This document shows, in pieces, positions 1 to 23,956 of a stretch of DNA of 34,344 nt. How positions within the stretch are numbered: position 1 is the first letter of the stretch; every line of letters starts with the position of its first letter. Source of the stretch: a virus (taxonomy: Duplodnaviria; Caudoviricetes). The stretch spans positions 1 to 34,344 of the IMG/VR virus record IMGVR_UViG_3300027819_000039; one strand, given 5' to 3'. A program made the translations under genes and the position numbers. Under the pieces are notes generated by a model. The model was given only the letters and a program-made list of their open reading frames with translations, was not told the origin of the DNA and did no database searches.

Positions 1-207
1 TCGCAGGCGCGTGCATTGCTCTACTCGATCCTGTTGCAGAACGGGGTGTACAACCGCAACGAAGTCCGTGCGCTGGAGAACCGCAATGCGAGCGACGCGC
101 CAGGGATGGATGACTACACCGTTCAGCTCAACATGACGGTGATTCAATTGCTGGAGCAGATGCAGCGCGCAGCGGCGCAGACCGACAAGAGCACGAGCCA
201 GGCCTGA
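1..207 (+). CDS. HK97-family portal protein, C-terminal end (truncated by the window)
   Basis: Frame is open from base 1. The motif LQNGVYNRNEVRALEN...GMDDYTVQLNM is typical of portal C-termini, and the gene lies directly upstream of the protease. Confidence 0.9.
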   Translation, partial: SQARALLYSILLQNGVYNRNEVRALENRNASDAPGMDDYTVQLNMTVIQLLEQMQRAAAQTDKSTSQA

Positions 208-231
208 GCGCAGCGTAAGAAATTGAAGGAG

Positions 232-260
232 AAGCCCGCCATCGCGCGGGCTTTTTATTT
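232..260 (+). terminator. Intrinsic terminator-like hairpin
   Basis: AAGCCCGC-catcgc-GCGGGCTT followed by a T-rich tail. Confidence 0.75.
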
Positions 261-271
261 GGAGGTCAGCC

Positions 272-943
272 ATGAAGCACATGATCGTTCCGGCCGAGTT
301 CAAGAGCGTGTCCGATGTAGGCGTCTTCTCCGGTTATGCCTCGATCTTCGGCAACGTCGATCTCGGTGGTGACGTCATCGCAAAGGAGGAGCCCTTCAAA
401 GAAATCGTGACGAATCCGGAGGGGAAAGTGCTGACCCTCTTCCAACACGATTCCGGTGGCGGATGGGGTTCGACTGGCGCGGGCGGCCTGCCGATCGGCT
501 TGTCAAGTGTTAGTCAGAACTCAAAGGGCCTGAAGTTCGACGGCCAGCTCGTCATGGATGACCCATTCGTGCAGCGCGTGCACACCCACATGAAGGCGCG
601 CACGCTGACCGGGATGTCGATTGGCTACGACGTCCTGCCCGGCGGAGCGAAGATCCTCGAATCCGGCATCCGGCAATTGAACGCGCTAAAGCTCTGGGAA
701 ATCAGCGTGGTCACCTTCCCGATGAACCCGAAGACGACGATCGATTCGGTCAAGATCGCTCCACAATTCGACACGATCAGAGAATGCGAAATCTGGCTCC
801 GGGATGAGCTTGGTTTCACCAATAGCGCGGCGAAGGAATTCATCGCGCGATTCAAGAAGGCGCTGGTTCGGGATGAACCGACTCGGGATGAGTCTCAGGC
901 GAAAGAAGTGATCGAGTACCTCTCCAACCTGAAATTCTCATAA
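272..943 (+). CDS. HK97-family prohead (maturation) protease
   Basis: Motifs GVFSGYASIFGNVDLGGD, LFQHD, GMSIGY and LWEISVVTFPMN; GGAGG RBS at 261-265. Confidence 0.95.
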   Translation: MKHMIVPAEFKSVSDVGVFSGYASIFGNVDLGGDVIAKEEPFKEIVTNPEGKVLTLFQHDSGGGWGSTGAGGLPIGLSSVSQNSKGLKFDGQLVMDDPFVQRVHTHMKARTLTGMSIGYDVLPGGAKILESGIRQLNALKLWEISVVTFPMNPKTTIDSVKIAPQFDTIRECEIWLRDELGFTNSAAKEFIARFKKALVRDEPTRDESQAKEVIEYLSNLKFS

Positions 944-957
944 CCGAAAGGACCATC

Positions 958-2223
958 ATGGAATTCAACGCTACCGAGATGAAGGAGTTGAACGCGGCGC
1001 TGAAAAAGGCGTTCGACGAAATGCAGGACAACATCAAGCGCGCGCAGGACACCGCAATGAAGGCGCTGGAGGAATCCCGCACCGAGGGCACCCTGCACGC
1101 GAAGACGAACGAGAAGCTGACCGAGTTCAACACGGCCGCGGAGAAACTCGGCGAGACCGTGAAGGAGCTGAAGACGCGCACGCTCGAACTCGAGCAGAAG
1201 CTCGACAAGCGGCCTGTCAGCGAACCGGCGCGCGCGAAATCAATCGGGCAGATCGTCGCCGAATCCGAGGAGTTCAAGGCGGCGTGCGGCAACCGGAACG
1301 CCAAGACCATGAACGCGGTGACCGTCGGCAGCTTCCACAGCAAGGCCAACATCCTCAACGTCAATCCGCCCTCCTCGGTGCAGCCGCTCGTGCAGGGCGA
1401 CCGCCAGCCCGGCATCATCTCCCCGGGCTTGCGCCGGCTGACGATCCGCGACCTGCTCCCGCAGACGACCACGAACAGCAACCTGATCGAGTTCGCGCGG
1501 GAACTGCTCTTCACCAACGCCGCGGCGCCGCAGGGCGGAACCACCAGCCCGGACGAAGTGACGGAAGGCGAAGCGAAGGCGGAGAGCTCGCTCACCTTCG
1601 AATTCGCGTCGACCCCCGTGATCACGATCGCCCACTTCATCCCTGCGTCGCGGCAGATCCTGTCGGACGCCCCGATGCTGCAGGGCTACGTCGACGGGCG
1701 CCTGCGCTACGGGCTCGCCCTCGAGGAGGAGGACGAACTGCTGAACGGCAACGGCTTGCAGGGCACCCTCCAGGGCCTGCTCGGCTACGCCGCGGCCTTC
1801 ACCGGCGGCGCGACCAACCAGACCGCGCTGGATACCCTCCTCAAGGCGCAACTGCAGGTCAGCCTGTCGGAATACTCGATCTCCGGGTATGTCCTTCACC
1901 CGACGGACTGGACGAACATCCTGCTGCTGAAGGACACGACCGGGCGCTACCTGTTCAGCGATCCGCACGGCATGGAGCAGCCGCGTGTCTGGGGCGTCGA
2001 CGTCGTGCCGACGCAGTCGCAAACGCAGGGCACGTTCCTCGCTGGCGCCTTCACGCTGTGCGCGGAAATCTTCGACCGCGAGGACGCGACCGTTCGCGTG
2101 GCCGAGCAGCACAGCGACTTCTTCGTCAGGAACCTGGTCGCGATCCTGGCCGAGGAGCGCGTCGCCCTTGCCGTGTACCGGGCGAGCTCCATGGTGCAGG
2201 GCGCGATCTCCTACGCCGGATAA
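958..2223 (+). CDS. HK97-fold major capsid protein with N-terminal coiled-coil delta domain
   Basis: Motifs RRLTIRDLL, TIAHFIPASRQILSDAPML and DFFVRNLVAILAEERVALAVYR. Confidence 0.97.
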   Translation: MEFNATEMKELNAALKKAFDEMQDNIKRAQDTAMKALEESRTEGTLHAKTNEKLTEFNTAAEKLGETVKELKTRTLELEQKLDKRPVSEPARAKSIGQIVAESEEFKAACGNRNAKTMNAVTVGSFHSKANILNVNPPSSVQPLVQGDRQPGIISPGLRRLTIRDLLPQTTTNSNLIEFARELLFTNAAAPQGGTTSPDEVTEGEAKAESSLTFEFASTPVITIAHFIPASRQILSDAPMLQGYVDGRLRYGLALEEEDELLNGNGLQGTLQGLLGYAAAFTGGATNQTALDTLLKAQLQVSLSEYSISGYVLHPTDWTNILLLKDTTGRYLFSDPHGMEQPRVWGVDVVPTQSQTQGTFLAGAFTLCAEIFDREDATVRVAEQHSDFFVRNLVAILAEERVALAVYRASSMVQGAISYAG

Positions 2224-2243
2224 CCTGGACGCCGCAACTACCT

Positions 2244-2272
2244 TCCCCGGGCCTTCGGGTCCGGGGACTTTT
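2244..2272 (+). terminator. Terminator or stabilising hairpin after the capsid gene
   Basis: TCCCCGGGCC-TTCG-GGTCCGGGGA then CTTTT; UUCG tetraloop. Confidence 0.7.
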
Positions 2273-2283
2273 CGAGAGGTCCC

Positions 2284-2688
2284 ATGGCCCGCGCAGAACT
2301 GAAAACGGCGCAATGTCGCATCAAACCGCGGCGCATCATCGCCGAGGGTTGCGGTGGAACGATCTTCTGGGCGACCCCGACCCGGGCACGCCTGTTGATC
2401 GATGTTGGCGCAGTGGAACTCGTCAACATGGTCCCGGTGCAAGCCGGTCCTGTCGCGACAAGGCCGATCGGCCCGACCGAAGCGCCGGTAGCGGGACCGA
2501 GCGAAGTGAAGGAGCCTCCCGAAAAACGATCCTCCGCCGTCGTCCCGGATGGCCCCTCGATCGATTCTCAGTCGTCGAGCGAGCCTGGGACGGCGGCACT
2601 GTCGTCTGCCTCGGCGGCGGGCCTACTCTCACCGGAGCGCATATCGCCGCCGTCGAAGAAGCGCGGGAGGCCGAAAAAGTCCGGGTGA
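2284..2688 (+). CDS. Small post-capsid protein, Pro/Ser-rich; probable zero-frame product of a frameshifting gene
   Basis: GAGAGG RBS and ATG at 2284; GPxE repeats. The last ~54 codons overlap the next ORF, which is in the -1 frame. Confidence 0.75.
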   Translation: MARAELKTAQCRIKPRRIIAEGCGGTIFWATPTRARLLIDVGAVELVNMVPVQAGPVATRPIGPTEAPVAGPSEVKEPPEKRSSAVVPDGPSIDSQSSSEPGTAALSSASAAGLLSPERISPPSKKRGRPKKSG

Positions 2689-3254
2689 TCGCGGTCAACG
2701 ACGCGTACCTGGTCGCCCCCTTTGCCGACATCTGCTACTTCGCCGACTCGGAATGGTGGGGCTGGCACAGTAGGGGGATCGCGAAGCCGAAGCTCGGGCT
2801 CACCGCCGAGCAGGTCCGCGAGAGGTTCGCGGCATTCGCCGGCGAGAAGTGTTCGATCCAGAATAGCGGTGCCAACGTCGAGGATCCCAGCGTGCATCTG
2901 CTGCGGAACAAGAATTTCCCGGCGCATGGGAGCGGGATTTCGCTCGATCCGGAGTGCCTGATGAGCGGGGGTAATTCCGGCTGGCAGGCGATCAATCTGG
3001 CGGTGCTCGCCGGGGCGAAGACCGTCCTGCTACTGGGCTACGATGCGCGCGAACCGGCATCCGGGCGCGACTCGCACTGGTTCGGCGAGCATCCGAAGCG
3101 GGCGCCCGCGGATGCCTACGCGAAATATCGGCAGGCCTGCAAGGCGGGGGCGCCATCGCTCAAGGCTGCGGACGTGCGCGTGATCAACTGCTCGCCCGGG
3201 AGCGCGATCGACGCGTTCGAGAGGTTGGACCTTGCCCAAGCCCTGCGCCTATAA
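2526..3254 (+). CDS. Maf/DUF115 (MptE-like) putative glycosyltransferase; start uncertain, probably reached by -1 frameshift
   Basis: Motifs TVVCLGGGPTL, VIAVND, GGNSGWQAINLAVLAGAKTVLLLGYD and VINCSPGSAI. There is no ATG/GTG/TTG near the domain start. Confidence 0.8.
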   Translation, partial: TILRRRPGWPLDRFSVVERAWDGGTVVCLGGGPTLTGAHIAAVEEAREAEKVRVIAVNDAYLVAPFADICYFADSEWWGWHSRGIAKPKLGLTAEQVRERFAAFAGEKCSIQNSGANVEDPSVHLLRNKNFPAHGSGISLDPECLMSGGNSGWQAINLAVLAGAKTVLLLGYDAREPASGRDSHWFGEHPKRAPADAYAKYRQACKAGAPSLKAADVRVINCSPGSAIDAFERLDLAQALRL

Positions 3255-4041
3255 CCTGACGCGCCGGGAGATTCACTACCGCCACGACGCCTTCTCGGCC
3301 GGGCTGCGTGCAGCGGGGTACGAGGTCAAGACCGGAGGATGGAACGCCGCGCGCGCGGGCGATGTGTTGCTGATCTGGAACCGCTACGGCCAGTATCACG
3401 AGCAGGCTGGAAAGTTCGAAAAGGCGGGCGGGACGGTCATCGTTGCCGAGAATGGCTACCTCGGCGTCGACGAAAACTGCCACCAGCTCTATGCAATGGC
3501 CCGCCACGGCCACAACGGGGCGGGAGACTGGCCGGTGGGCGGCCCGGAGCGCTTCGCCGCCCTGGGCGTCGATTTGGCCCCATGGCGGGCATCAGGCGGC
3601 CATATCCTCGTCTGCCCGAATCGCAGTTTCGGCATGCCGGGCAACATCATGCCGCCTGATTGGGGCAACGACGTCCGCCGGCGGCTCGCCAAGGTGACGA
3701 AGCGCGAGATCAGGCTGCGGCCGCATCCCGGGAACAGTGCTCCGCGGAAGCCGCTCGCGGAGGACCTGGCGGGTGCGTGGGCGTGCGTAATCTGGTCGAG
3801 TTCGGCCGGGGTGCACGCGCTCGCGGCCGGAATTCCGGTCGTCTGCGAGGCGCCGTTCTGGATTTGCAAGCCCGCCGTGCTCGACCGGGTTGCGGACGTT
3901 GAGGCCCTCGATCTGACGCAGCCGTGGGAGCGGATGGGCGCGGACGCGACCCGGCTGGAGGCGATGCGGCGCCTCGCCTGGGCGCAGTGGCGGCTGTCGG
4001 AAATCCAGTCGGGAGAGGCGTTCAGGAGGCTACTGGTATGA
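3232..4041 (+). CDS. KpsS/KpsC-like (Capsule_synth-type) putative glycosyltransferase 1
   Basis: Motifs VIVAENGY, LRPHPG and AWACVIWSSSAGVHALAAGIPVV; TTG start overlaps the upstream gene. Confidence 0.7.
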   Translation: MPKPCAYNLTRREIHYRHDAFSAGLRAAGYEVKTGGWNAARAGDVLLIWNRYGQYHEQAGKFEKAGGTVIVAENGYLGVDENCHQLYAMARHGHNGAGDWPVGGPERFAALGVDLAPWRASGGHILVCPNRSFGMPGNIMPPDWGNDVRRRLAKVTKREIRLRPHPGNSAPRKPLAEDLAGAWACVIWSSSAGVHALAAGIPVVCEAPFWICKPAVLDRVADVEALDLTQPWERMGADATRLEAMRRLAWAQWRLSEIQSGEAFRRLLV

Positions 4042-4373
4042 ACATAGAAACCGAAATCGCATGGATGGAAAACTTCCGCGCTGCATCGCGCTTGAGTAAG
4101 GATCAGTTTGACTCAATCCTGGCTGTCCAGCGCAGATTGTTCTGTGAGCATCGAGACGCGCTAGAAAACGCTGTCGACCCAGCATGTCCGCAAATAGAGG
4201 GCCATCGGCTTTGCTGGGATTGCGGCGCTATCGTTAGCGAGGTTGAGGAGTGCCCGATCTGCGCGACGGTCGACCATTCGCAATTGCCTCGGATGGCGTT
4301 TGGAATGATGTTAGATGAGCCCGGCGCCCAGGAAGATGTGATGTTCGCATTGACTTTCGGCTTGCCGGTCTGA
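4038..4373 (+). CDS. Hypothetical zinc-ribbon protein (inserted gene)
   Basis: ATGA overlap with the previous stop; CWDCG...CPIC; visibly more AT-rich codons than its neighbours. Confidence 0.65.
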   Translation: MNIETEIAWMENFRAASRLSKDQFDSILAVQRRLFCEHRDALENAVDPACPQIEGHRLCWDCGAIVSEVEECPICATVDHSQLPRMAFGMMLDEPGAQEDVMFALTFGLPV

Positions 4374-5134
4374 TCACCTGCTACGCCCAGCGAGACAAGC
4401 CGAAGTCGCAGCGGGTGCTTGAAGCATTCGCGGCCGGCTGCGGCGGCCGGATGGCGAGCACCACGGCGCGCGAGTTGGAACCCGGCGGGGCAGCTTTTTA
4501 CGGCGTGCGGCCAGGCTGGCTGCACCTGTGGGAACAGGCGAAGCGCGAGGCCCGAGATTGGTTTTACCTGGACAACAGCTTCGTCGACGCCGGTCGAGAA
4601 GCCTATTTCCGCGTCGGGGTCAACGCAACGCAGAGTTGGTCGACGCGGCCCTCGGATGGCAAGCGCCTCGCGCAGCTGGGCGTACGCGTGCAGCCGTGGC
4701 GCCGCACTGGCTCGCACATCGTCGTCTGCCTGCAATCCGAGGACTACATGCGGCCGGTGGCGAACTGGCCCAGTGGCGTGCTCGGCTGGCAGGAACATGT
4801 GCTGCGGGCGCTGCGGCCGCACACCGACCGGCTGATCGTCGTGCGCGGCAAGAAGGCGGACCGGCCGCTCGCGCAAGAGCTGGGCGAGGCCTGGCTGCTG
4901 GTCGCGCATTCGAGCGCGGCCGCGGTCGAGGCGCTGATCGCTGGCGTGCCGGTGATCGTGACCGATCCGGCGTGCGCGGCTTCCGGTTTTTCCTCCGCGT
5001 TCGAGGCGGTCGAATCGCCGCGCCGGCCGGACGGGCGCGAGGAGTGGGCGGCGCGACTGGCGGATTCGCAGTGGACAAGTTCCGAAATGCGAGACGGGAT
5101 GGCTTGGAGGGCGATTTGGCAAAGGGCTGGCTGA
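4370..5134 (+). CDS. KpsS/KpsC-like putative glycosyltransferase 2
   Basis: Motifs WFYLDNSF, VQPWRRTGSHIVVC and AWLLVAHSSAAAVEALIAGVPV; paralogous to 3232-4041. Start is either CTG at 4370 (CTGA overlap) or GTG at 4415. Confidence 0.7.
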   Translation: MITCYAQRDKPKSQRVLEAFAAGCGGRMASTTARELEPGGAAFYGVRPGWLHLWEQAKREARDWFYLDNSFVDAGREAYFRVGVNATQSWSTRPSDGKRLAQLGVRVQPWRRTGSHIVVCLQSEDYMRPVANWPSGVLGWQEHVLRALRPHTDRLIVVRGKKADRPLAQELGEAWLLVAHSSAAAVEALIAGVPVIVTDPACAASGFSSAFEAVESPRRPDGREEWAARLADSQWTSSEMRDGMAWRAIWQRAG

Positions 5135-5670
5135 AAATACCCGGGGTCCAGGATGGCGACCGAACCCTTGCGCAGCAGATTCTCGCCCTACAGCCCGCCA
5201 TCGCCAAGTGCCGCGGAAAGACCGTGCTCGACCTCGGCTGCGCCGAGGGGTTGATCGGCCGCGAGTTCGCCAAGGCCGGCGCCGCGACGGTTGTGGGGAT
5301 CGAGCGCGAGGGAAACTACGTCAGCATGGCGCGCGCGATGTGCCTCGGGTACCGGGTGTCGATCAAGCATGCCGACGTCAAGGACCTGGACCCGGAATTC
5401 CCGATGCCGCACGACATCGTGCTCGCGCTCGGGATCATTCACAAACTGGAGCACCCGGAGATGGGCCTGCGCTTCGCCGCACGGTCCGCCCGGGAACTGC
5501 TGCTGCTCCGGAGTGGACGCGGTTCGGTGAACGGGATCATCCGCGGCAAGTTCAGCCGCAACGAATGCGATTCGGCGAAGCTGATGACGGAGGAGGGATT
5601 CGTGCTGGAGAGGGTCATCGAGGGGCCGCCGGAATTGAAAGAGCCCTGTGAATACTGGCGGCGGCCATGA
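5116..5670 (+). CDS. Class I SAM-dependent methyltransferase
   Basis: Motif I KTVLDLGCAEG, then VVGIE and DIVLALGIIHKL; GGAGG 5 nt before TTG 5116. Confidence 0.85.
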   Translation: MAKGWLKIPGVQDGDRTLAQQILALQPAIAKCRGKTVLDLGCAEGLIGREFAKAGAATVVGIEREGNYVSMARAMCLGYRVSIKHADVKDLDPEFPMPHDIVLALGIIHKLEHPEMGLRFAARSARELLLLRSGRGSVNGIIRGKFSRNECDSAKLMTEEGFVLERVIEGPPELKEPCEYWRRP

Positions 5671-6578
5671 AAACACTGACCGCCTTTTGCGACCTGGCCC
5701 TGTGCCCGGTGTCGTACGATTTCGTCGTCTGGCTCATGCGCGCACTGGTCGAGCGCGACCGCCGCGGGTGCGATCATTTGCACGTCGTCCTGGTGCCGCA
5801 CGAGCAGGGCCTGGGCGGGTTCGCTCGCAACTGGGGCGAACACGACGAGCCTGCAACGCGCTGGCGGCTGTGGCACATCGTCATGGATTGCATTCCGCTC
5901 GCCGGTGCGACGGTGACACTGGCGGCAAGCAAGGCGCAGAGCGCGGCTATCTTCTGGGGCACCGTGCAGCAGCGCGCCGATGCCCAGATGTGGCAGCCGC
6001 AGGAACGCTCCCATCTCGCCGGACAGTTGATAGAGGACTGCCGGGCCGGGAAGGGATTCAAGACCGGTCTGAGGCCGACGGAAGCCGCGCGGCGCTACGT
6101 TGCGCAATGGTTCGACGACGATCCGCGTCCCCTGATCACGCTGACGACTCGTCGGCAGGAAACGCATGCCGACCGCAATTCGTCGCACGACGCGTGGGAT
6201 TCCTTTTACGGTTGGCTCCCGGAATCGAAATACAGCGTTGTTCGGCTCGAGGATTCTCACGACGGTCTGGCCCATTGGGAGGGATGCTGGGCTCAGATTT
6301 CGGCGGATCTGCGCTTGGCCCTGTACGAGCGCGCGGCGCTGAATTGCATCGGCACGAACGGCCCGGCGATCCTGCTCTGGTTCTCCGGTGCGCCGTTCCT
6401 CGAGTTCGGATTCGGGCTCCCCGCGGAAGTCTGGGCCGAGCACATGGAAAAGCACCTTTCGCTCAAGCACGGCGAGCAGTTGCCATGGGCGACGCCAAAC
6501 CAGCGGCTGGTATGGCGGCCGGACACCTTTGCCGTGATGCGCGAGGAGTTCGAGGCGTGGGAACGGGCACGGTCGTAA
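5667..6578 (+). CDS. Putative GT-B fold glycosyltransferase (paralogue A)
   Basis: ITLTTR...RNSSHDAW and LRLALYERAALNCIGTNGPAILL resemble the C-terminal domain of GT9-like enzymes; paralogue at 7719. Confidence 0.55.
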   Translation: MKTLTAFCDLALCPVSYDFVVWLMRALVERDRRGCDHLHVVLVPHEQGLGGFARNWGEHDEPATRWRLWHIVMDCIPLAGATVTLAASKAQSAAIFWGTVQQRADAQMWQPQERSHLAGQLIEDCRAGKGFKTGLRPTEAARRYVAQWFDDDPRPLITLTTRRQETHADRNSSHDAWDSFYGWLPESKYSVVRLEDSHDGLAHWEGCWAQISADLRLALYERAALNCIGTNGPAILLWFSGAPFLEFGFGLPAEVWAEHMEKHLSLKHGEQLPWATPNQRLVWRPDTFAVMREEFEAWERARS

Positions 6579-6958
6579 CCGTGCCGATCTCCGTCGGCGA
6601 ACTGTTCGACAAGATCTCAATCCTGGAGATCAAGTCGCGCCGGATCACGGATGTTGCGAAGCAGGTTCATGTCGAGCGAGAGCTGCTCGCGCTGCGCGGT
6701 GTTGCGGACGCATCGGTCGCACTCGACATGGCGGGCTATCGGGTTCTCGAGGACCTGCGGCTGGTCAACCTCCTGCTTTGGGAGATCGAAGATCGCATCC
6801 GCGAATGTGAACGCAGTGGCGACTTTGGGGCGGATTTCGTCGCGCTCGCCCGCGGCGTGTACATGCAGAACGACCGACGAGCCGCGTTGAAGCGCAGGTT
6901 GAACGAGTTGACGGCTTCGGAGATCGTCGAGGAAAAGTCCTACGCCGGGGCCATCTGA
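6557..6958 (+). CDS. DUF6165-like protein
   Basis: VPISVGELFDKISILEIK...LWEIEDRIR...ARGVYMQNDRRAALKR...EEKSY; GAGGAG before GTG 6557. Confidence 0.8.
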   Translation: MGTGTVVTVPISVGELFDKISILEIKSRRITDVAKQVHVERELLALRGVADASVALDMAGYRVLEDLRLVNLLLWEIEDRIRECERSGDFGADFVALARGVYMQNDRRAALKRRLNELTASEIVEEKSYAGAI

Positions 6959-7722
6959 TGGGGTACGGCGACGATCTTATGGTGTCGGGCCGTGCCCGCG
7001 CCATGCAGAAGACCGATCGCAGAAAGGTGAGGATCGTCTATCGGCGCGGCGGGGCTCGCTGGAGTGCGGTCTGGGATCACAACCCGAGGATCGCGAGATT
7101 CGACGAGCAAGGGGATTTTCAGGAACTGGAAGCGCGCGACGCGAACAACCAGCGTCCATACCACACCGGGAAGACGCCGGAGCGGTGGCTCTACAACCTA
7201 AATTTCCGTCCCGATGTCGGGGAGATATACCTTACCGTTGCGGAGCAGGAATTCGCCAAGCGCAATCGCGTGCAGATCGTCATCGAGCCGACGATCAAGG
7301 CGAACGCGAGCCCGAACAAGCAGTGGGGGCTGGAGCGGTGGAAGGAATTCGTCCGGATCGCGAGCGCCGCCGGGTTTCATCTGACGCAACTCGGTCGTCA
7401 CGGGATGCGACAGATACCGTGCTCCACGTTGCTGACGACGGAAGGATTTCGCCATACCTGCGCGGTGCTGGCGAACGCGAAGGCCTACGTCGGGCATGAG
7501 GGCGGCATGCATCATGCTGCGGCGGCGCTCGGTATTCCTGGTGTCGTGATCTTCGGCGGCTTCATCGCCGTCGAGACGACGGGATACGCGCTGCATCGCA
7601 ACCTCGGCGTTCACGTCGGCGAGGCGTGCGGCATGCGCGCCCCGTGCTCGCATTGCGCCGCGGCGATGGCGGCGATCACGCCCGAGAGGGTGCTCGCCGA
7701 ACTGAAGGAAGTCCTGCGGTGA
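6958..7722 (+). CDS. GT9 (ADP-heptose heptosyltransferase-like) glycosyltransferase
   Basis: Motifs GYGDDLM, PNKQWGLERW and YVGHEGGMHHAAAALGIPGVVIFG. Confidence 0.85.
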   Translation: MGYGDDLMVSGRARAMQKTDRRKVRIVYRRGGARWSAVWDHNPRIARFDEQGDFQELEARDANNQRPYHTGKTPERWLYNLNFRPDVGEIYLTVAEQEFAKRNRVQIVIEPTIKANASPNKQWGLERWKEFVRIASAAGFHLTQLGRHGMRQIPCSTLLTTEGFRHTCAVLANAKAYVGHEGGMHHAAAALGIPGVVIFGGFIAVETTGYALHRNLGVHVGEACGMRAPCSHCAAAMAAITPERVLAELKEVLR

Positions 7723-8432
7723 AAGCGCGTTACGATCTCGGCGACGGCATCGCCGGATTCGATTTTTTCCAGTGGCTCGTCATGGCGCAGGCCCTGGGCG
7801 CGACCGAGGTCGTTTTCGACACGCGCACCGTGAAGACGACGAAATGGCCGGAGAAGACGGTCCGCCGGCGTTTCGAGTCGATCCTGCTGCCGGGCCCGGC
7901 GCTCGCCGGAATGCCTGCCTCGATCGGCACCGAGGGCGAGCGCGTCTGCGGCGTGCATTTCCGCGAGCTAGTCGCCTGGTGGCTCGCCGGCGGACGGTTC
8001 AAGCGCCTGCAATCGGTGCTGCCGCCAGGCCGGGCGCGCTACACGGTGACGCTGCGAAAGACCGATCGGCATCCGACGCGGAATGCGAACGAGGCTGATT
8101 GGCGCGCCTTCGCCAAGGAGATCGGCGCCGTGGTGATCGAAGACTACGACGTGAAGCCGATCCATCTCCACGAGCGCATGGCGCTCTACGCCGGCGCCGA
8201 GATGAATTTCTTCACGAACAACGGCCCGGCGATCTTGTGTCTGCTATCGGAGTACCCGGCCATGCTCTTCGATTGCGGCGTGATGTCGAACCAACTTCGC
8301 AAGTGCGGCATCGAGTACGGCAATCCGCCGCCGTTCTGCCTGCCGCAGCACCGATTGATCTTCGAGAGCGGAGAACTGGCGAACCTGCGCAGGCACTTCG
8401 ACGCATGGAGAAACGATGCCGCGCAAGCGTGA
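7719..8432 (+). CDS. Putative GT-B fold glycosyltransferase (paralogue B)
   Basis: GTGA overlap. YDL...FDFFQWL, TLRK...RNANEADW and RMALYAGAEMNFFTNNGPAIL are shared with 5667-6578. Confidence 0.55.
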   Translation: MKARYDLGDGIAGFDFFQWLVMAQALGATEVVFDTRTVKTTKWPEKTVRRRFESILLPGPALAGMPASIGTEGERVCGVHFRELVAWWLAGGRFKRLQSVLPPGRARYTVTLRKTDRHPTRNANEADWRAFAKEIGAVVIEDYDVKPIHLHERMALYAGAEMNFFTNNGPAILCLLSEYPAMLFDCGVMSNQLRKCGIEYGNPPPFCLPQHRLIFESGELANLRRHFDAWRNDAAQA

Positions 8433-8985
8433 CTTCACAGCCATCATCGAACGGCTGATTCACGTCGGCTGGACCATCAAGTGGATGGCTCGTGAATCCA
8501 ATTACTCCGCGTGGGCGATCCGCAAGGTGCGCGGCGGCAAGGGCGAACCTCCGTATGGGCTGGGCGTATGGCTGATCGATCTTGAGTCGAAGGCCGAACG
8601 AGCCGGATTAACCGAATACTGGCTCGCAGGAAAGCGTAACGGCTGCGCGATCAAACGGCCGCCGCGGCTATACATGCGACGCGGATACAGGCACGGGGAT
8701 GTGCAGGTGGTTCCCACCGACACGAGCAGCGTCGACATTGGCTTTTACCTCGACGCACTGGAGGCAAGCGGCCTGCAACCCTGCGCGATCGGCCGATACG
8801 TCGGCACGAGCGACAGCCAGATTTACGACTGGAAACTGCATCGCACGGCAAGTGCCGGCATGCGCGAACGAATGCGTGACCTGTATCGCCGAATGGACAA
8901 CGCCGGCCTGATCCCGCCGCACAAGTCCCGCGAAAGCGCCCATTGCGAAAGCACGCACATGTATTTTCTGGGAGTTTCTCTTTGA
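8416..8985 (+). CDS. Hypothetical protein with two possible helix-turn-helix repeats
   Basis: GWTIKWMARESNYSAWAIRKVR and GLQPCAIGRYVGTSDSQIYDWK resemble Xre/Cro-type HTHs; coupled to both neighbours. Confidence 0.55.
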   Translation: MPRKRDFTAIIERLIHVGWTIKWMARESNYSAWAIRKVRGGKGEPPYGLGVWLIDLESKAERAGLTEYWLAGKRNGCAIKRPPRLYMRRGYRHGDVQVVPTDTSSVDIGFYLDALEASGLQPCAIGRYVGTSDSQIYDWKLHRTASAGMRERMRDLYRRMDNAGLIPPHKSRESAHCESTHMYFLGVSL

Positions 8986-9671
8986 TCCAACACCAAGGCA
9001 TCTGGCTGCCCGACAACGAGCGCGAGCAGATCGAGTGGATGAACAAGCACGGCGAGCTCGTCAACGGGCGCGGCACGTACCAGATCAAGAAGCTGCGCGC
9101 GGCGATGGAACACGTCAAGCAATTCCGCACCGCGGTCGATGTCGGCTCGCACGTCGGGTTCTGGTCGATGCACCTGGCGCCGAAGTTTGCGCATCTGCAC
9201 GCCTTTGAGCCGATCGCCGAGTATAGGGAGTGCTTCCTGCGCAATCTGCATCCTCAGCTCTCCGCGGGAATCGATGTCGCGCTCTACGATTGCGCGCTCG
9301 GGAACAAGTCCGGCCAGGTCACGCTGTCGCGCAATCCGACGGTGTCGGGGGACACCTGGATCCGCCCGGAGAGATACCCGGTCGCGGCCGGTCGCGTCGA
9401 CGAGGGCGGTGTCAACATGCGAACGCTCGACAGTTTCGAGCTGCGCGACGTGGATTTCCTCAAGGTCGATTGCGAAGGGTACGAGTATTTCGTGCTGCTC
9501 GGTGCCGCGGACACGCTCGCCCGCTGCAAGCCCTGCGTGATCGTCGAGCAGAAACGGGATATGGCCGCGAAGTTCGGGCTGGCGCCGCAGCAGGCGTGCC
9601 GGTTTCTGGAGAAGCTCGGGGCGCAGCCGCGTTGCGAACTGGGCGGCGACTTCGTTTACTCCTGGGACTGA
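8982..9671 (+). CDS. FkbM-family methyltransferase
   Basis: Motifs TAVDVGSHVG, HAFEP, CALG, RTLDSF and DFLKVDCEGYE; TTGA overlap start. Confidence 0.92.
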   Translation: MIQHQGIWLPDNEREQIEWMNKHGELVNGRGTYQIKKLRAAMEHVKQFRTAVDVGSHVGFWSMHLAPKFAHLHAFEPIAEYRECFLRNLHPQLSAGIDVALYDCALGNKSGQVTLSRNPTVSGDTWIRPERYPVAAGRVDEGGVNMRTLDSFELRDVDFLKVDCEGYEYFVLLGAADTLARCKPCVIVEQKRDMAAKFGLAPQQACRFLEKLGAQPRCELGGDFVYSWD

Positions 9672-9673
9672 GC

Positions 9674-9856
9674 ATGGGCGCGTATTGGGGGTTGCTCTTC
9701 GCGTGGCTCGGTACGGCGTGGGGTCCAGCTTCGACATCAGAATCTTTCGATGTCCGCGCGTTTATCGCCTCCATCATCCTTACGGGGATCGTGATGATCC
9801 TCTGGGGCGCAGTATTTCATTGGTGGCCACTTGGCGTTCACCGCGAAGAGGATTGA
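9674..9856 (+). CDS. Small membrane protein (two hydrophobic segments)
   Basis: 60 aa, MGAYWGLLFAWLG...FIASIILTGIVMILWGAVF; fills the gap between genes exactly. Confidence 0.6.
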   Translation: MGAYWGLLFAWLGTAWGPASTSESFDVRAFIASIILTGIVMILWGAVFHWWPLGVHREED

Positions 9857-9858
9857 AC

Positions 9859-10464
9859 ATGATCCGAGTCGTCACCGCTCCAGCCGTCTACCCGGTCACG
9901 CTGGCCGAGGCGCGGCTATGGTGCAAGGCGTTCGACGACATCACGGCGGACGACTCGATCCTGACCATCCTGATCGCCGCGATGACGGGCTATGCCGAGC
10001 ATCGGACCGGGCGGGCGTACGTCGAGCGCACGCTCGAGCTGAACCTCACCGGGTTCAAGAGCTGCATCGAGCTGCCCTGGCCGCCGCTGATCGGCGTGGA
10101 CTCGGTGACCTACGTTAACACGAGCGAGCAAATCGCAACGGTATCGAGCGCAGAGTACGAGGTCGATGCGGTGAGCGAACCCGGCCGCTTGCGGCCGCTT
10201 GCGACAAAATCGTGGCCATCGGTCGGGACGCTATTCAACCCGGTGCGGATCCAGTACCGGGCCGGATACGTTCCCGCGGCGTCGCCCACCGATCTCACCG
10301 ACAACAGCTACCTGCCGGGACACTTGCGGATCTGGATGCAGGCGCGCATCGCAACGCTCTACGGCAACCGCGAGCAGATCATCGATGGCCGCGATGTCGA
10401 GATCCCGCGCGATTTCGCCGATGGCCTGCTCGACTCCCTCGTCGTCGGGACGCGGTTTTTCTGA
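9859..10464 (+). CDS. Head-tail connector (adaptor; gp6/gp15-like, phiE125 gp8 type)
   Basis: Motifs PAVYPVTLAEARLW, AEHRTGRA, IQYRAGY and IATLYGNRE; GAGGA RBS. Confidence 0.92.
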   Translation: MIRVVTAPAVYPVTLAEARLWCKAFDDITADDSILTILIAAMTGYAEHRTGRAYVERTLELNLTGFKSCIELPWPPLIGVDSVTYVNTSEQIATVSSAEYEVDAVSEPGRLRPLATKSWPSVGTLFNPVRIQYRAGYVPAASPTDLTDNSYLPGHLRIWMQARIATLYGNREQIIDGRDVEIPRDFADGLLDSLVVGTRFF

Positions 10465-10471
10465 ATCTGAA

Positions 10472-10607
10472 TTCGACCGGCCGGGCTCCCTGCGACAGCG
10501 CCCGCCTCACCAGCGGAGGACATTTTGACGAACCTGCAGCACTCATCCGGAAAGGACTGTGCGAGAGGGGAATCGGATCGCGCCTCGCATAGTAACGGCA
10601 GGTCGAA
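10472..10607 (+). ncRNA. Candidate structured RNA upstream of the GT8-like gene
   Basis: Closing stem TTCGACCgGCCG / CGGCaGGTCGAA, with internal stems ACTGTGCGAG/CTCGCATAGT and CCTC/GAGG. Confidence 0.45.
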
Positions 10608-10610
10608 CCC

Positions 10611-11369
10611 ATGACCGTGGAATGTGAAATCTTCATCGGGTATGACGCCCGCGAGCGCCTCGCCTGGGAGGTCTGCGCCCGCTCGATCACAGCCCATGCC
10701 TCGCTTCCGCCGCCGATCCGGCCGATCTGCATGCAGGCGCTGCAACTGGCGGGCCTGTATCGGCGGCCGACCGTGCGCGACGAGGTCGGAATCCTGACCG
10801 ACGTGATCTCGCGGGCGCCGATGTCAACCGAATTCGCCATCGCCCGGTTCTTCGTGCCGTTTCTGACCCGGGCGCCGTGGGCGCTATTTTGCGACGCGGA
10901 CTTCATGTTCCGAGCCGACATCGCGGAACTGCTCGAGCACGCCGACCAGCGCTACGCCGTGCAGGTCGTGAAGCACGCGGATTATGTTCCACGGGAAACC
11001 GTGAAGATGGACGACCATCCGCAGAGCGCCTATTCGCGCAAGAACTGGTCGAGCTTGGTGCTGTGGAACATGGCGAGCGCCGGAGCGAAGCGGCTGACCC
11101 TGCATGCAGCGAACACGCAGAAAGGGCTCTTCCTGCATCAATTCTCCTGGCTCGAGGCGCACGAGATCGGGGAGCTGCCGGCCGCGTGGAACTGGCTGGA
11201 GGGTACGAGCGATCCGATGATCGAGCCGAAGGCCGTGCATTTCACCCGGGGCGTGCCGGGCATGATCAAGCCGCCTGTGGCCTACACCTCGGAGTGGTGC
11301 GATCACATCTCGCTGGAGCAAGGTTCGCGGCTGCCGCGCTGGCACGCGCAGCGGAAGGCGGCGGCATGA
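10611..11369 (+). CDS. GT8-like / CDI-like nucleotide-diphospho-sugar transferase (GT-A)
   Basis: Motifs IFIGYDARE, STEFAIARFFVP, DxD in ALFCDADF, YSRKNWSS, WNWLEG and AVHFTRG. Confidence 0.88.
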   Translation: MTVECEIFIGYDARERLAWEVCARSITAHASLPPPIRPICMQALQLAGLYRRPTVRDEVGILTDVISRAPMSTEFAIARFFVPFLTRAPWALFCDADFMFRADIAELLEHADQRYAVQVVKHADYVPRETVKMDDHPQSAYSRKNWSSLVLWNMASAGAKRLTLHAANTQKGLFLHQFSWLEAHEIGELPAAWNWLEGTSDPMIEPKAVHFTRGVPGMIKPPVAYTSEWCDHISLEQGSRLPRWHAQRKAAA

Positions 11370-11737
11370 GATCGTCGGACCTCGATCGTCAGATCAGCGT
11401 CGAACGGCGCACGATCACTAAGGACGCGGTCTACGGCGGCAAGGTCGAGACGTGGGTCCCACTCGTGCCGGTCGGGAGCCCGCCCGTTGCGGCGCGCTTC
11501 TGGGCGCAGGTCCAGGACGTGCTGCCGAGTCGCTCAGAATCCGTGCGCCAGGGCCTCGAAGTCGCCCGCGATCAGGTCCGCATCCGAACCAGGTATCGCT
11601 CGGATGTCACTTCGGACATGCGGGTGACGGTGCACGGGGATGCCGATGTCCTCTATCAGATCGTGGGCGGCCCGGCGATGATCGGCCGCAAGGAATGGCT
11701 GGAGATGGTTTGCGAAAGGTACAGGCCAGCACCATGA
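11366..11737 (+). CDS. Head closure protein (SPP1 gp16-like)
   Basis: ATGA overlap; LDRQISVERR, WAQV and RIRTRYRSDVTSDMRV. Confidence 0.9.
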   Translation: MRSSDLDRQISVERRTITKDAVYGGKVETWVPLVPVGSPPVAARFWAQVQDVLPSRSESVRQGLEVARDQVRIRTRYRSDVTSDMRVTVHGDADVLYQIVGGPAMIGRKEWLEMVCERYRPAP

Positions 11738-12637: not shown

Positions 12638-13369
12638 GTGGCCTTGTCAAAGGAAGAACTCAGACGGCGCAAGAACGCGGCTCGCAACTTGCGCCGCGCG
12701 ACTGACCCCGCTTACGCAAAGAGGGAGGCGGAAAAATCCGCGCGCTATCGTGCCGAGCATCCTGACAAAGCGAAGGCGTGCCAAGCGAATCATTACCGCA
12801 AGAACAAAGCGGTAGTTCGTGCAAAACAAAAAGCGAGTCGCGCAGCGAATCCGGGACCGCACCGTGCTTCCTCAAGGGCATATAGGCGCGAACACAAGGA
12901 TGAGGTTCGCATTTTCCTAAAGCAATATCGCATCGCAAATGCCGCAAGGATCAAGGCGCAATTGGCCGCTAAGTATCTAGCTAACCGTGAAACGCATCTC
13001 GCGAAGTGCGCCGCCAATTACGCCGCAAATCCGGCCCCTGCAAAAGCGCGCACGAAGGCATGGATAGCGGCAAACCCTGACAGGGTGAGAATCACGCACA
13101 TCAATAGACGCGCCAAGAAAAAGATGACCGGGGCCGGTAAACTCTCGCGCGACATCGCCGCCAAGCTGCTGATGCTTCAACGCGGTAAATGCGCCGTCTG
13201 CAGCTGCGACCTTACCAAGGCGAAGTATCACATGGATCACATCGAGCCGCTTGCTCTTGGCGGACCGCACGAGGATTCAAACATTCAATTACTCTGCCCT
13301 CCTTGCAATCAGGCGAAGCACGCGAAGCCGCCAATCGAGTTTATGCAATCCAGGGGATTCTTGCTGTGA
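12638..13369 (+). CDS. HNH endonuclease 1 (free-standing, homing-like)
   Basis: Basic helical N-terminus; CAVC...HMDHIEPLALGG...NIQLLCPPCNQAKH. Confidence 0.9.
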   Translation: MALSKEELRRRKNAARNLRRATDPAYAKREAEKSARYRAEHPDKAKACQANHYRKNKAVVRAKQKASRAANPGPHRASSRAYRREHKDEVRIFLKQYRIANAARIKAQLAAKYLANRETHLAKCAANYAANPAPAKARTKAWIAANPDRVRITHINRRAKKKMTGAGKLSRDIAAKLLMLQRGKCAVCSCDLTKAKYHMDHIEPLALGGPHEDSNIQLLCPPCNQAKHAKPPIEFMQSRGFLL

Positions 13370-15396: not shown

Positions 15397-15440
15397 TAAA
15401 ATGAGCGAGCCGCAAAGGTGTTGAAGCACCGATGCGGCTC
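15397..15440 (+). promoter_or_regulatory. Putative promoter (-10 TAAAAT) and leader hairpin of HNH 2
   Basis: TAAAAT at 15397-15402, followed by the stem GAGCCGCA-aa-GGTG-ttgaag-CACC-ga-TGCGGCTC. Confidence 0.5.
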
Positions 15441-15474
15441 TAACCACTTCCACGACTTTCGAGGAGTCGCAGCG

Positions 15475-16143
15475 ATGGCTGACGAGATTCTACAGATAAT
15501 CGGGCGCGAGGAAGCAAGGGCGCTTGGACTGAAGCGGTACTTCACTGGTGAGCCGTGTGCACACGGGCACATTTGCCAGCGACAAGTTAAATCCTCCACT
15601 TGTGTTATGTGCTCAAGGGCAGCTACGCGCAAGTGGCGGATTCGCAATCCAGAAAAGATCGCTCGTTACAGAATAATCGACAGGGAAAATCACAAGGCCG
15701 CAGTTGCAAGATGGTATCGGGAGCACAGGGACGAAGTGAATGCAAGGGCAGTAGATTGGCGGAAACGCAATCCCGAGAAAGCTCGAATCTCAAACTTGAA
15801 ATCCGTCAAGAGCGAGAACCATAAAAGGGCGACGAGAAACTGGCGCAAGAATAACCCTGCAATGGTGCGTGTCCACGACGCCAACAAACGGGCGAAGCGA
15901 AAGAAAGCTGAGGGAAAGCACACTCTAAAAGATGTGCTGAGAATTGTAGAACGGCAGAATTGGAAGTGCGCAAATTGCGCCGCATCGGTAAAAAATGGAT
16001 ACCACGTTGATCACGTAATGCCACTGTCAAGAGGCGGGTCTAACTGGCCTTCAAACTTGCAGATACTTTGCCCGCCATGCAACTCAAGGAAGAACGCAAA
16101 ACTCCCGGAAGAATGGGCGAAAGAAAACGGAAAGCTTCTATAA
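15475..16143 (+). CDS. HNH endonuclease 2
   Basis: GAGGAG RBS. N-terminal KRYFTGEPCAHGH...CVMC; C-terminal CANC...HVDHVMPLSRGGSN...NLQILCPPCN. AT-rich. Confidence 0.92.
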   Translation: MADEILQIIGREEARALGLKRYFTGEPCAHGHICQRQVKSSTCVMCSRAATRKWRIRNPEKIARYRIIDRENHKAAVARWYREHRDEVNARAVDWRKRNPEKARISNLKSVKSENHKRATRNWRKNNPAMVRVHDANKRAKRKKAEGKHTLKDVLRIVERQNWKCANCAASVKNGYHVDHVMPLSRGGSNWPSNLQILCPPCNSRKNAKLPEEWAKENGKLL

Positions 16144-16793: not shown

Positions 16794-17201
16794 ATGGACA
16801 TCCGCACTTTTGCAGTCGAAGAAACGAGCACGCTTGAACTGCGCGGCCCGAACGACGAGCCGCTGCTCGGCGATGACAAGAAGCCGATGACGGTAACGGT
16901 CTTCGGCCCGGGCTCAAAGACCTACGCGAAGGCGCAGGCCGCGCGCAACAACCGCATGATCGACAAGCTGAAGAAGAAGGGGAAGACGGACACGAGCGCG
17001 GAAGAGGCGGCGCGAGAGCAGGCGGAATTCCTCGCCGCCTGCACCAAGGAATTCAGCGCCAACATCGAATACGAGCAGTTGAAGGGCGAGGCGCTCTTCC
17101 GTGCCGTCTATGCCGACAACTCGATCGGCTTCGTCGCCGAGCAGGTCGGCCGCCACCTCGGAGAGTGGGGAAATTTCTCGAGGGCTTGCGCGACGAGTTG
17201 A
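16794..17201 (+). CDS. Tail assembly chaperone (gpG-like)
   Basis: Lies between tube and TMP and ends with the slippery WGNF sequence. Confidence 0.85.
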   Translation: MDIRTFAVEETSTLELRGPNDEPLLGDDKKPMTVTVFGPGSKTYAKAQAARNNRMIDKLKKKGKTDTSAEEAAREQAEFLAACTKEFSANIEYEQLKGEALFRAVYADNSIGFVAEQVGRHLGEWGNFSRACATS

Positions 17202-21938: not shown

Positions 21939-22862
21939 ATGAACGTGATTCCCGCGCTCGCGATCACGGACGCGATGCTGACCTATAGCTCCGTCTCGGA
22001 ACCGGATGCGGGATCGCCGAGCACCGAGCCGATCTACGACGCTGGCGTGAGCTACGCACTTGCTGCCGTCGTGATCAGCACGACAACGCATCGGAAGTAC
22101 GAATCTCTGGCCGCAGCAAACCTGGGCAACGCGCTCACCAATACCACGAAGTGGCTCGACATCGGCCCGACGAACAAGTGGGCGATGTTCGATATCCTGC
22201 GGAACACGCAGACCATCGCGCCGTCACCGATCGTCGTGACGATCGTCCCTGGCGAGCGCATCAACTCGATCGCCGTGCTCGGGCTGGACGCGACGAGCGT
22301 CACCGTGATGATGACGGGGCCTGGCTCGCCTGCCCCACTCTATTACACGCACACCGAGGACCTCAACACCCGCGAGGTGCTGAACTGGTACGACTATTTT
22401 TTCGAACCGTTCAGCACGCGACCGGCATTCGCGCTTTTCGATCTGCCGCCGTATTCCAACGGGATCATCACCGTCACGATTACGAACACGGTCGGCGACG
22501 CAAAATGCGGTGCCATCGCGATCGGCACGTTTCAGTACATCGGCGAGGCGCAGCAGGAAGCCGAATCCGAGGAATTGAACTTCTCGACCATCACGCGCGA
22601 GACGACCGGAGAAGCGGTGCTCGTGCAGCGCCGCAGTCTGCCTAAAAGCACGCAGCGCGTGCTCTGCGACAAGTCCCTCGTCAACCAGGTGCGCGAACTG
22701 CGAACGGCCTTGAACGCGACGCCTGCGGTGTGGTCCGCACTCGACGATCAATCGACGCATGAATTCTTCGATGCCCTGCTGATCCTGGGCATCTACCGGC
22801 AATTCCGGATAACGCTCGCCGATCCGACCTGCACGATCAATTTGGAAGTCGAGGAAATCTGA
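21939..22862 (+). CDS. Distal tail / tail-tip structural protein
   Basis: First gene after TMP; beta-rich; WLDIGPTNKWAMFD and WYDYFFEP; ends INLEVEEI. Confidence 0.75.
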   Translation: MNVIPALAITDAMLTYSSVSEPDAGSPSTEPIYDAGVSYALAAVVISTTTHRKYESLAAANLGNALTNTTKWLDIGPTNKWAMFDILRNTQTIAPSPIVVTIVPGERINSIAVLGLDATSVTVMMTGPGSPAPLYYTHTEDLNTREVLNWYDYFFEPFSTRPAFALFDLPPYSNGIITVTITNTVGDAKCGAIAIGTFQYIGEAQQEAESEELNFSTITRETTGEAVLVQRRSLPKSTQRVLCDKSLVNQVRELRTALNATPAVWSALDDQSTHEFFDALLILGIYRQFRITLADPTCTINLEVEEI

Positions 22863-23956
22863 TGACTATCGACGCACTGCCACAAGCCCCTTCGACGTCC
22901 GACCCGACGAATTTTGCGACGGAGGCCGATGCGTTCATTGCCGCGCTGCCGACATTTCGAACGCAGCTCAACACGACGGCGGCAGGGATCAACGCGAGCG
23001 CCGCCGGCGGCGGTGTCACGATCCCCTACACCTTCAGCGCGACGATCACCGACGCCGATCCTGGCAACGGTTACCTGCGGCTATCCAGCGCCACGCAGAA
23101 CGCCTCGACGACGCTGCGTCTTGACCTCCTCGATGCGGCCGCGGTGGACCGCACGGCGACGCTCGCGACGTTCGACGATTCCACGAGCACGGTCAAGGGC
23201 CAAGTCCGCGTTCAGAAGGTCGGGGACGGTTCGAAATGGCTGCTCTTCGATCTCACCGCGATGTCCGCGCCGGGCTCCCCCGATCCGGGCTACCGCAACT
23301 TCACGATTGCGAATGTCGATTCGAGCGCCGCAAGCCCCTTCATCGAGGGCGACGATATCCTCGTCATGTTCACGCGCACCGGCGACAAGGGTGACACCGG
23401 CGCGACCGGCGCGACTGGCGCGGCCGGGAATGCGCTGGTCCTCCTCTCGACGGTCACGGCGAACAACTCGGCGACCGTCGATGTCGAGACCACGCTCGAT
23501 GCCACCTACGACGCCTATCTCCTGATCGCGACCGGAGTCACGATCGCGAACGATAGCGAATCCCTGCGCTGCCAGTTGAAGATCGGCGGGGCCTATCTCG
23601 CCACGTCGACCTATTTCTACCACGCCTCCGTGCCGAATTCATCGGCAGCGACCTATTCCGGTGTGAACGCGGCATTGGCCGGCATGGAAGCGTCGATCCG
23701 CATATCCGGCGCGATCGGCAGCGCGGCCGGCGAGCACATCAACATCGAGGTGAAGATTTCCAATCCTGCCGGGACGACGCTATCGAAAACGATCCGCTGG
23801 AGCGGCGAGGCGATCAACAATTCCGGCGAAATTTACCCGATCACGGGTGCGGGAGGCAATGGCGGCACCGCGGCGCTCACCGGGCTGCGGTTCTTCGCCT
23901 CGCTCGGCAACATTCTGTCCGGGGACTTCCGGCTGTACGGCTACAAGAGGGTTTGA
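22862..23956 (+). CDS. Tail fibre / receptor-binding protein
   Basis: N-terminal ALPQAPSTSDPTNF; short collagen-like GDKGDTGATGATGAAG; C-terminal GLRFF...SGDFRLYG. Confidence 0.8.
   Translation: MTIDALPQAPSTSDPTNFATEADAFIAALPTFRTQLNTTAAGINASAAGGGVTIPYTFSATITDADPGNGYLRLSSATQNASTTLRLDLLDAAAVDRTATLATFDDSTSTVKGQVRVQKVGDGSKWLLFDLTAMSAPGSPDPGYRNFTIANVDSSAASPFIEGDDILVMFTRTGDKGDTGATGATGAAGNALVLLSTVTANNSATVDVETTLDATYDAYLLIATGVTIANDSESLRCQLKIGGAYLATSTYFYHASVPNSSAATYSGVNAALAGMEASIRISGAIGSAAGEHINIEVKISNPAGTTLSKTIRWSGEAINNSGEIYPITGAGGNGGTAALTGLRFFASLGNILSGDFRLYGYKRV

Follow-up and report, generated by a model that had tools for sequence, protein, structure and literature searches.

A candidate programmed -1 frameshift joining a post-capsid protein to a Maf-like transferase domain in a tailed-phage genome

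The question raised by this locus is how a transferase domain is translated when its reading frame offers no start codon of its own. The window, the whole 34,344-nucleotide stretch that was analysed, belongs to a tailed-phage genome and contains a prohead protease at 272-943, an HK97-type major capsid protein gene (958-2223, plus strand; Pfam Phage_capsid, E = 3e-43) and, with the capsid gene directly 5' of it, a post-capsid open reading frame (ORF) of 134 codons (2284-2688, plus strand) that encodes a folded N-domain of about 45 residues, a Pro/Glu linker and a Ser/Ala-rich and basic tail. A second frame, -1 relative to this ORF and open from 933 to 3254, encodes a transferase of the Maf/CstII fold (2526-3254, plus strand; 242 codons counted from the shift site). 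An initial annotation had reported that the Maf-like domain lacks a canonical start nearby, and indeed no ATG, GTG or TTG occurs in the 70 codons upstream of its GGGP motif. It had proposed a programmed -1 frameshift as the solution; its coordinates, its frame assignment and every element that it named were verified base for base, and the fusion of about 323 residues that it expected has a computed length of 323 (81 + 242). Taken as a whole, the locus is probably best explained by a ribosomal slip at 2521-2526 that yields this 323-residue fusion, the N-domain of which may dock the enzyme on the phage head.

Further transferase-like and methyltransferase genes form a cluster between the head and neck genes (3232-11369, plus strand), and this block extends up to the head-tail connector gene; it includes matches to Glyco_transf_9 (E = 5e-7), Methyltransf_25, FkbM (E = 2e-17) and, weakly, DUF6716, while several of its ORFs have no family match, among them 4038-4373 and 8416-8985, which break up the cluster. 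Two HNH-endonuclease-like ORFs (12638-13369 and 15418-16143), with matches far under the family cut-offs, lie among the neck and tail genes. An Rfam scan of 2100-2800 returned nothing close to a gathering score, and no sigma-70 promoter or terminator was matched within 150-3400. The sequencing runs that contain the window are groundwater metagenomes; none of the runs listed provides RNA data containing it.

The transferase domain and the predicted shift site

The domain encoded in the -1 frame comprises 241 residues, and its relatives match from its first residues onward. It is a member of PHROG 4603 by sequence match (E = 4e-35; labelled alpha-2,3-sialyltransferase), and its structure model (pLDDT 92) is most similar to the Maf flagellin glycosyltransferase 5MU5 (Z 16.9, rmsd 3.4, 197 aligned, model residues 4-241; Foldseek E = 2.8e-6), five Z units above the next match, an MptE-type pyrophosphokinase (Z 11.7), which is followed by CstII (11.0) and human sialyltransferases (ST8SiaIII, 9.8). 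The fold of the catalytic domain is common to all of these proteins, and the match to 5MU5, which includes the central GT29/GT42-like fold typical of Maf glycosyltransferases, bears out the "Maf-like" label; unlike the multi-domain Maf protein of 632 residues, the window domain is limited to 241, its sequence identity to the structural matches is 14-17%, and its score against Pfam PF01973 (MptE-like; 15.1 bits) stays below the gathering score of 34.6. Maf enzymes transfer a nucleotide-activated nonulosonate to Ser or Thr residues of proteins, and by its modelled fold the -1 domain is predicted to be a glycosyltransferase.

The predicted shift site reads GAA AAA CGA in the 0 frame (2521-2529, plus strand), with an A_AAA tetramer at 2523-2526; a slip at this point would join E-K to T-I-L-R, in register with E-K-K-I-L-R in the relatives. 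The initial annotation had correctly located the slippery element (GAA AAA C within 2520-2527) but overlooked that it is weakened in comparison to the relatives. At the aligned position, the 14 near relatives have A_AAA_AAA (7), A_AAA_AAG (5), G_GGA_AAG (1) or CGA_AAG (1), and 13 of them possess a full heptamer, whereas the window has CGA, an uncommon codon (20 of 292 Arg codons), in place of the second AAA or AAG, and only the A_AAA tetramer remains. Since the site is degenerate in this way, the efficiency of slippage is probably low, and the site could be decaying. In a ranking of the six in-frame A_AAA sites found across 14 window genes, 2523-2526 came first for its 3' fold and second for its Shine-Dalgarno-like duplex. 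A GGGAGG with an A_AAG tetramer behind it (2665-2679) was also observed shortly before the 0-frame ORF ends; it is not conserved, and a slip there would join the transferase frame too late for the whole domain.

Potential stimulatory signals flank the site on both sides. The internal Shine-Dalgarno (SD)-like AAGGAG that had been described at 2509-2514 (plus strand) is present 9 nt before the AAA codon, with a predicted duplex of -8.0 kcal/mol; the spacing given for bacterial -1 frameshifting in the available part of a recoding review is 9-14 nt (PMC5009743). Duplexes of -5 kcal/mol or stronger accompany 22 of 32 sites in the overlap family described below, compared to 80 of 320 control windows; two loci, L070 and L218, were excluded from this 32-site test of SD and hairpin for want of a clear site. 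Downstream, a predicted stimulatory hairpin (2536-2597, plus strand) with the arms GCCGTCGTCCC (2536-2546) and GGGACGGCGGC (2587-2597) folds with -40.4 kcal/mol (z = -4.5; equalled by 0 of 200 shuffles). The same hairpin recurs with z at or below -2.5 in the seven nearest relatives, 6 nt from the second codon in each; 7 of its 18 pairs are changed on both sides, and its covariation score, which kinship may inflate, was reached by 2 of 500 shuffles. RNAalifold over all 14 rows did not recover the long hairpin, and z values at or below -2 were found downstream of 15 of 32 family sites versus 5 of 40 controls. Conservation of the stem, which had been named as a check, holds among the seven nearest relatives but not as a family-wide feature; the long hairpin of the window is confined to its nearest clade. 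Four sequence features that characterize frameshift sites of the dnaX/IS3 type are found in the window: a slippery motif in the 0 frame (of the weak class), the SD spacing, a 3' structure and a conserved -1 frame without a start.

Comparison of transferase loci

A first set of 234 loci was selected by transferase homology alone; after removal of 47 duplicates and of 7 loci without usable 5' DNA or anchor, 180 distinct loci remained, the window included. In 137 of these the N-domain was absent, 34 showed the -1 overlap, 5 were in-frame fusions and 4 had the N-domain as a separate gene; the profile used to recognize this domain had 31 of the 34 overlap loci as its seeds, chosen after the motif table was known. 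All 137 loci lacking the N-domain had a start codon at a distance of 8-45 codons 5' of the GGP motif, but only 3 of the 34 overlap loci did, and the transferase also has its own start in the four loci with a separate N-domain gene. Conversely, a heptamer of the form X_XXY_YYZ in the 0 frame was found in 26 of the 34 overlap loci, compared to 16 of 137 control loci and 25 of 169 gene-body windows; in the other two frames of the overlap loci, heptamers numbered 11/34 and 10/34, counts inflated by A-runs. Eight overlap loci are without a heptamer, and one of these (L070) has no motif at all and possesses starts of its own. When the six tetramers active in Escherichia coli are counted together with heptamers, 33 of the 34 overlap loci carry a motif, although tetramers alone are frequent by chance (52 of 137 control loci). 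Of the 32 overlap loci with DNA 5' of the small ORF, 30 have a capsid gene immediately before it. The transferase loci are related to each other, and the significance of all these counts is thereby overstated.

The overlap test was repeated on a second set of 80 loci chosen by capsid homology alone. It contributed 18 new distinct loci with a transferase beside the post-capsid ORF, most of them from one clade, and all 18 were in -1 geometry, with a heptamer in 16, a tetramer in 2 and an own start in 1. The overlap is thus conserved among homologs, in at least 52 distinct loci that include isolated phages. An additional search with the N-domain was less productive; a broad alignment was too loose for finding loci, and a narrow one retrieved seven contigs, all previously collected. 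Small post-capsid ORFs of similar kind, mostly without a heptamer and with no transferase behind them, were observed in several other loci (L243, L268, L272, L275, L278 and part of L287-L318); since many HK97-like phages keep such an ORF without a transferase, the short protein appears to have a role of its own.

Homologs fused in frame or provided with their own ATG had been regarded beforehand as evidence against a frameshift. Such homologs are numerous, and in-frame fusions of N-domain and transferase account for 18 of the best 150 protein representatives, but they coexist with the overlap loci and for this reason give no pointer to an error in the window. In a tree computed in quick mode from the rows listed, overlapping, fused and stand-alone forms are interleaved. 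In one in-frame fusion (L123:667-1485), the linker contains a run of nine A and resembles the alternative frame of L126, a sister locus of the overlap type; this may represent a recent frame change or an assembly effect. Stand-alone homologs in known phages, located beside morphogenesis genes, include P1 pmgO (L230), CcrColossus gp126 (L232) and PAJU2 ORF010 (L229); the database record of the last one calls it a "structural protein".

The slippery motif varies by lineage, as A_AAA_AAA/G, G_GGA_AAG/C, C_CCA_AAG, C_CCU_UUN or A_AAC_CCY, while the geometry is constant; within the clade of the window, A_AAA_AAA, A_AAA_AAG and G_GGA_AAG occupy one and the same aligned position. Conservation of the A-run had been named by the initial annotation as a check; what is kept is a slippery motif (26/34 and 16/18), and the A-run itself is swapped among lineages. 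In L035, L233 and several capsid-selected loci, the -1 frame has a stop codon 0-3 codons 5' of the motif. One example is phage D3 (orf6.5/orf7), which keeps C_CCA_AAG together with all seven other D3-like records examined (of 19 full-length matches), one of them a record with many indels; in their annotations the transferase begins downstream of the GPS motif, begins at an upstream GTG (PMG1) or is omitted. The GTG taken as the start for PMG1 is present in frame in D3-type loci and speaks against a frameshift there. C_CCA_AAG, G_GGA_AAG and A_AAA_AAG are named in the available part of Sharma et al. (2014; PMC4066793) as the heptamers that work best in E. coli, and all three occur in the overlap family; for the motif class of D3, the same portion of that study gives values as high as 54% in E. 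coli when a strong stimulator is present. Because start loss and slippery motif both track the overlap among phages that are only distantly related, the motifs swap between lineages, and in-frame fusions exist, it is very likely, as far as sequence comparison can tell, that a programmed -1 frameshift operates in this family.

Alternative explanations for the overlap in the window

For the weak site of the window itself, a -1 slip is likely to occur, judging from the sequence features of the site and its relatives. An unlikely alternative accepts frameshifting in the family and holds that the window site has decayed through the change from AAA to CGA, with the consequence that little or no fusion is made. 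Of 15 near loci, all but the window carry A_AAA_AAR, G_GGA_AAG or CGA_AAG, and a second copy of its exact junction pattern was not found in viral contigs; in the available text of PMC4066793, A_AAA is the weakest of the six active tetramers in E. coli (ranking after A_AAG, U_UUY and C_CCY, in this order, within a range of 0.26-5.6% when combined with a pseudoknot). Against decay, the transferase frame of the window is undisrupted and retains each of the 26 invariant residues on an end branch of length 0.29, SD and hairpin are at least as strong as in most near relatives, and a second locus, L247, shares the tetramer-only site (GAA AAA C). Conservation in the overlap, by codon position of the transferase frame, is 0.71, 0.76 and 0.57; the third position is the least conserved, which argues that the transferase frame is under selection there.

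Initiation of the transferase as a separate protein at ACG 2526 or ATC 2529, served by the AAGGAG, is quite improbable. Stand-alone homologs begin at the same place (M-S-I-L-R), so that the domain evidently needs no N-domain; the ACG was created by the change particular to the window, and seven of the 14 near relatives have the ATC. This non-canonical start, which the initial annotation had offered as its alternative, fares poorly in the other seven, where the codon is GTC, GCC or GTA; moreover, the SD would be 11-14 nt distant, and the stem of -40 kcal/mol starts 7-10 nt downstream of the start codon, inside the initiation footprint. It also leaves the heptamers in the upstream frame unexplained.

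Slippage of RNA polymerase on the A-run, which would insert one base and yield the fusion with no need for a ribosomal shift, is very improbable. Transcriptional slippage needs an A/T run of about eight to nine or more; runs of at least eight occur at 10 of 32 sites, but the runs are shorter at the other 22, the window has five A, and C_CCA_AAG, G_GGA_AAG and C_CCU_UUN are not homopolymers. The spacing of SD and hairpin, in addition, suits the ribosome. Equally hard to sustain is translational coupling, with termination at TGA 2686 and restart at the GTG that overlaps it (2685-2687; GTGA at 2685-2688, plus strand). The overlap does exist in the window, and the records of D3 and U7 annotate comparable truncated starts; yet a start codon close to the stop of the 0 frame was seen in no more than 4 of the 34 overlap loci, and a product begun at GTG 2685 would lose the first 53 residues of the transferase domain, and with them the invariant W20, G31, P32 and L34 and part of the region that aligns to Maf from residue 4. 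That the overlap reflects an indel, introduced by assembly or sequencing into what is really an in-frame fusion (a form that accounts for 5 of the 180 loci), can be practically dismissed, as contigs of four runs from three studies span 2200-3400 unbroken with zero letter differences and zero gaps, the window aligns gap-free with 13 relatives across the shift site, and the -1 geometry is common to the many overlap loci counted above. The contigs, as distinct from reads, may be the source of the window DNA; their value lies more in excluding an assembler slip than in confirming the sequence independently.

The N-domain, known recoding systems and a possible role on the phage head

The N-domain model (pLDDT 85) has the bL9-N/GINS-B fold, a fold that lambda gpFI shows in its C-terminal domain (PDB 2LSM; Z 4.9, rmsd 1.9, 47 aligned). 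This match is tied with those to bL9-N and GINS, and thus the fold by itself does not single out gpFI; the likeness to gpFI is favoured because, besides the shared fold of a small domain, the N-domain ORF sits after the capsid gene, as the gpFI gene presumably does directly after the major capsid gene of lambda. Unlike gpFI, the fold domain is N-terminal in the post-capsid ORF, and a PDB sequence search with the N-domain produced TPR artefacts and sub-threshold L9/GINS matches only, without gpFI at E values up to 10. The N-domain of the window had no match in Pfam, PHROG or NCBIfam, and all its ESM Atlas matches were under 0.9; weak matches to DUF7210 appeared in 7 of 38 relatives. An AT-hook-like RGRP tail was rejected as a general feature of the ORF; it occurs in 12 of 34 loci only, by a loose pattern.

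In the preferred reading, a programmed slip, ribosomes translating the post-capsid gene would move back one base at GAA AAA (2521-2526), stimulated from both sides by the SD-like sequence and the hairpin; a single lysyl-tRNA would re-pair from AAA to AAA, perhaps aided by the adjacent uncommon CGA codon. A minority of ribosomes would thereby produce the 323-residue fusion of N-domain and Maf-fold domain, and the majority the 134-residue protein, which with its basic tail may be a gpFI-like helper in head assembly or DNA packaging. gpFI is bound to the prohead lattice according to the accessible part of PMC4856287; the N-domain would dock on proheads in the same way, the fusion would bring a few enzyme copies to the head, and the head-borne enzyme would place the first sugar on Ser or Thr of exposed loops. 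Targeting of the enzyme to the head and modification of the head by it have an even chance of being correct. Capsid binding, a priming role of the transferase and a fixed fusion ratio, as put forward in the initial annotation, are inferences.

A candidate acceptor is present in the capsid protein, where a loop with a nine-residue insertion (1510-1569, plus strand) carries Ser-Pro at 1546-1551; the loop is presumably the outer E-loop. Among capsids with a transferase within 2 kb, 17 of 20 have Ser-Pro in this loop, versus 3 of 51 without one, an association that is confounded by kinship and that leaves out four unalignable capsids; of 21 further loci with a transferase, 10, including D3, lack the insertion. 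In the window, Ser-Pro or Gly-Ser-Pro in short loops was seen in the capsid (1546-1551) and in ORFs 9685-10464, 10877-11737 and 21939-23956, the protein types being capsid, connector, head-closure and tail-tip; these are candidate glycosylation tags. For mycobacteriophages, Che8 among them, modification of the capsid by glycosyltransferases of the phages' own has been proposed or shown (Freeman et al., 2023, cited in the available part of PMC11256854); these phages belong to a different group, their genes lie near the genome end, and that part describes no frameshift fusion for them.

The post-capsid site resembles several known recoding systems. As in lambda gpG/gpGT, a low-level -1 slip in a morphogenesis operon would yield a short product and a fusion with a common N-terminal binding part, and geometry is conserved where sequence is little conserved (PMC5009743, available part). 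In contrast to gpG/gpGT, the site is located behind the capsid gene, not between the tail tube or major tail gene and the tape measure gene, and the added part has an enzyme fold. The window phage has a separate site of the latter kind: its tail tube and tape measure genes enclose a G-like ORF (16794-17201) and, in the -1 frame, a T-like ORF that runs to 17608, and G_GGA_AAT and A_AAT_TTC occur at 17168-17177; this is probably the usual tail-chaperone frameshift and a second -1 site of the phage. The post-capsid frameshift works like lambda G/GT and is not a member of that class. In T3/T7 gene 10, Lactobacillus phage A2 and Listeria phages A118, A500 and PSA, a frameshift adds a C-terminal domain to a fraction of a head-related protein, and the domain is in frame in related phages (PMC5009743, same portion); here, by contrast, the shift takes place in a small post-capsid gene instead of the capsid gene itself, and a transferase fold takes the place of the Ig-like domain as cargo. 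With dnaX and IS3 the site shares a Z_ZZN or X_XXZ_ZZN motif, an upstream SD and a hairpin 4-10 nt downstream (PMC4066793, available part); it differs in its phage structural context, its lineage-swapped motif and, in the window, the weak A_AAA form. The accessible portion of the recoding review names tail-chaperone G/GT and capsid/tail extensions as conserved phage frameshifts (PMC5009743), and its first 300,000 characters contain neither "phage D3" nor "glycosyl". A published description of a post-capsid/transferase frameshift was not found in a search beyond which most subscription journals lie; a word search of the GeneTack clusters, outside supplement file 1, gave the tail-chaperone cluster only (PMC3711429, in part), and PMC11445458 mentions gpFII and not gpFI.

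If the frameshift is real, it adds a conserved head-operon site with an enzyme as cargo. It would bring to light a fusion protein that gene annotation has missed, and it would correct the records of D3 orf7 and its relatives, in which the transferase either is given a downstream start, at the cost of the conserved GPS motif, or is missing from the annotation. A broader reading is offered tentatively: in D3 and other HK97-type phages, the frameshift may make a gpFI-like chaperone tether a Maf-like enzyme to proheads, where it would glycosylate Ser-Pro loops at a dose set by the strength of the slip, and this would constitute a widespread third conserved class of recoding. Capsid glycosylation in proteobacterial phages would become directly testable, since D3 is available in culture and has just one transferase gene, and the window would represent a natural test of how weak a slip site can still serve.
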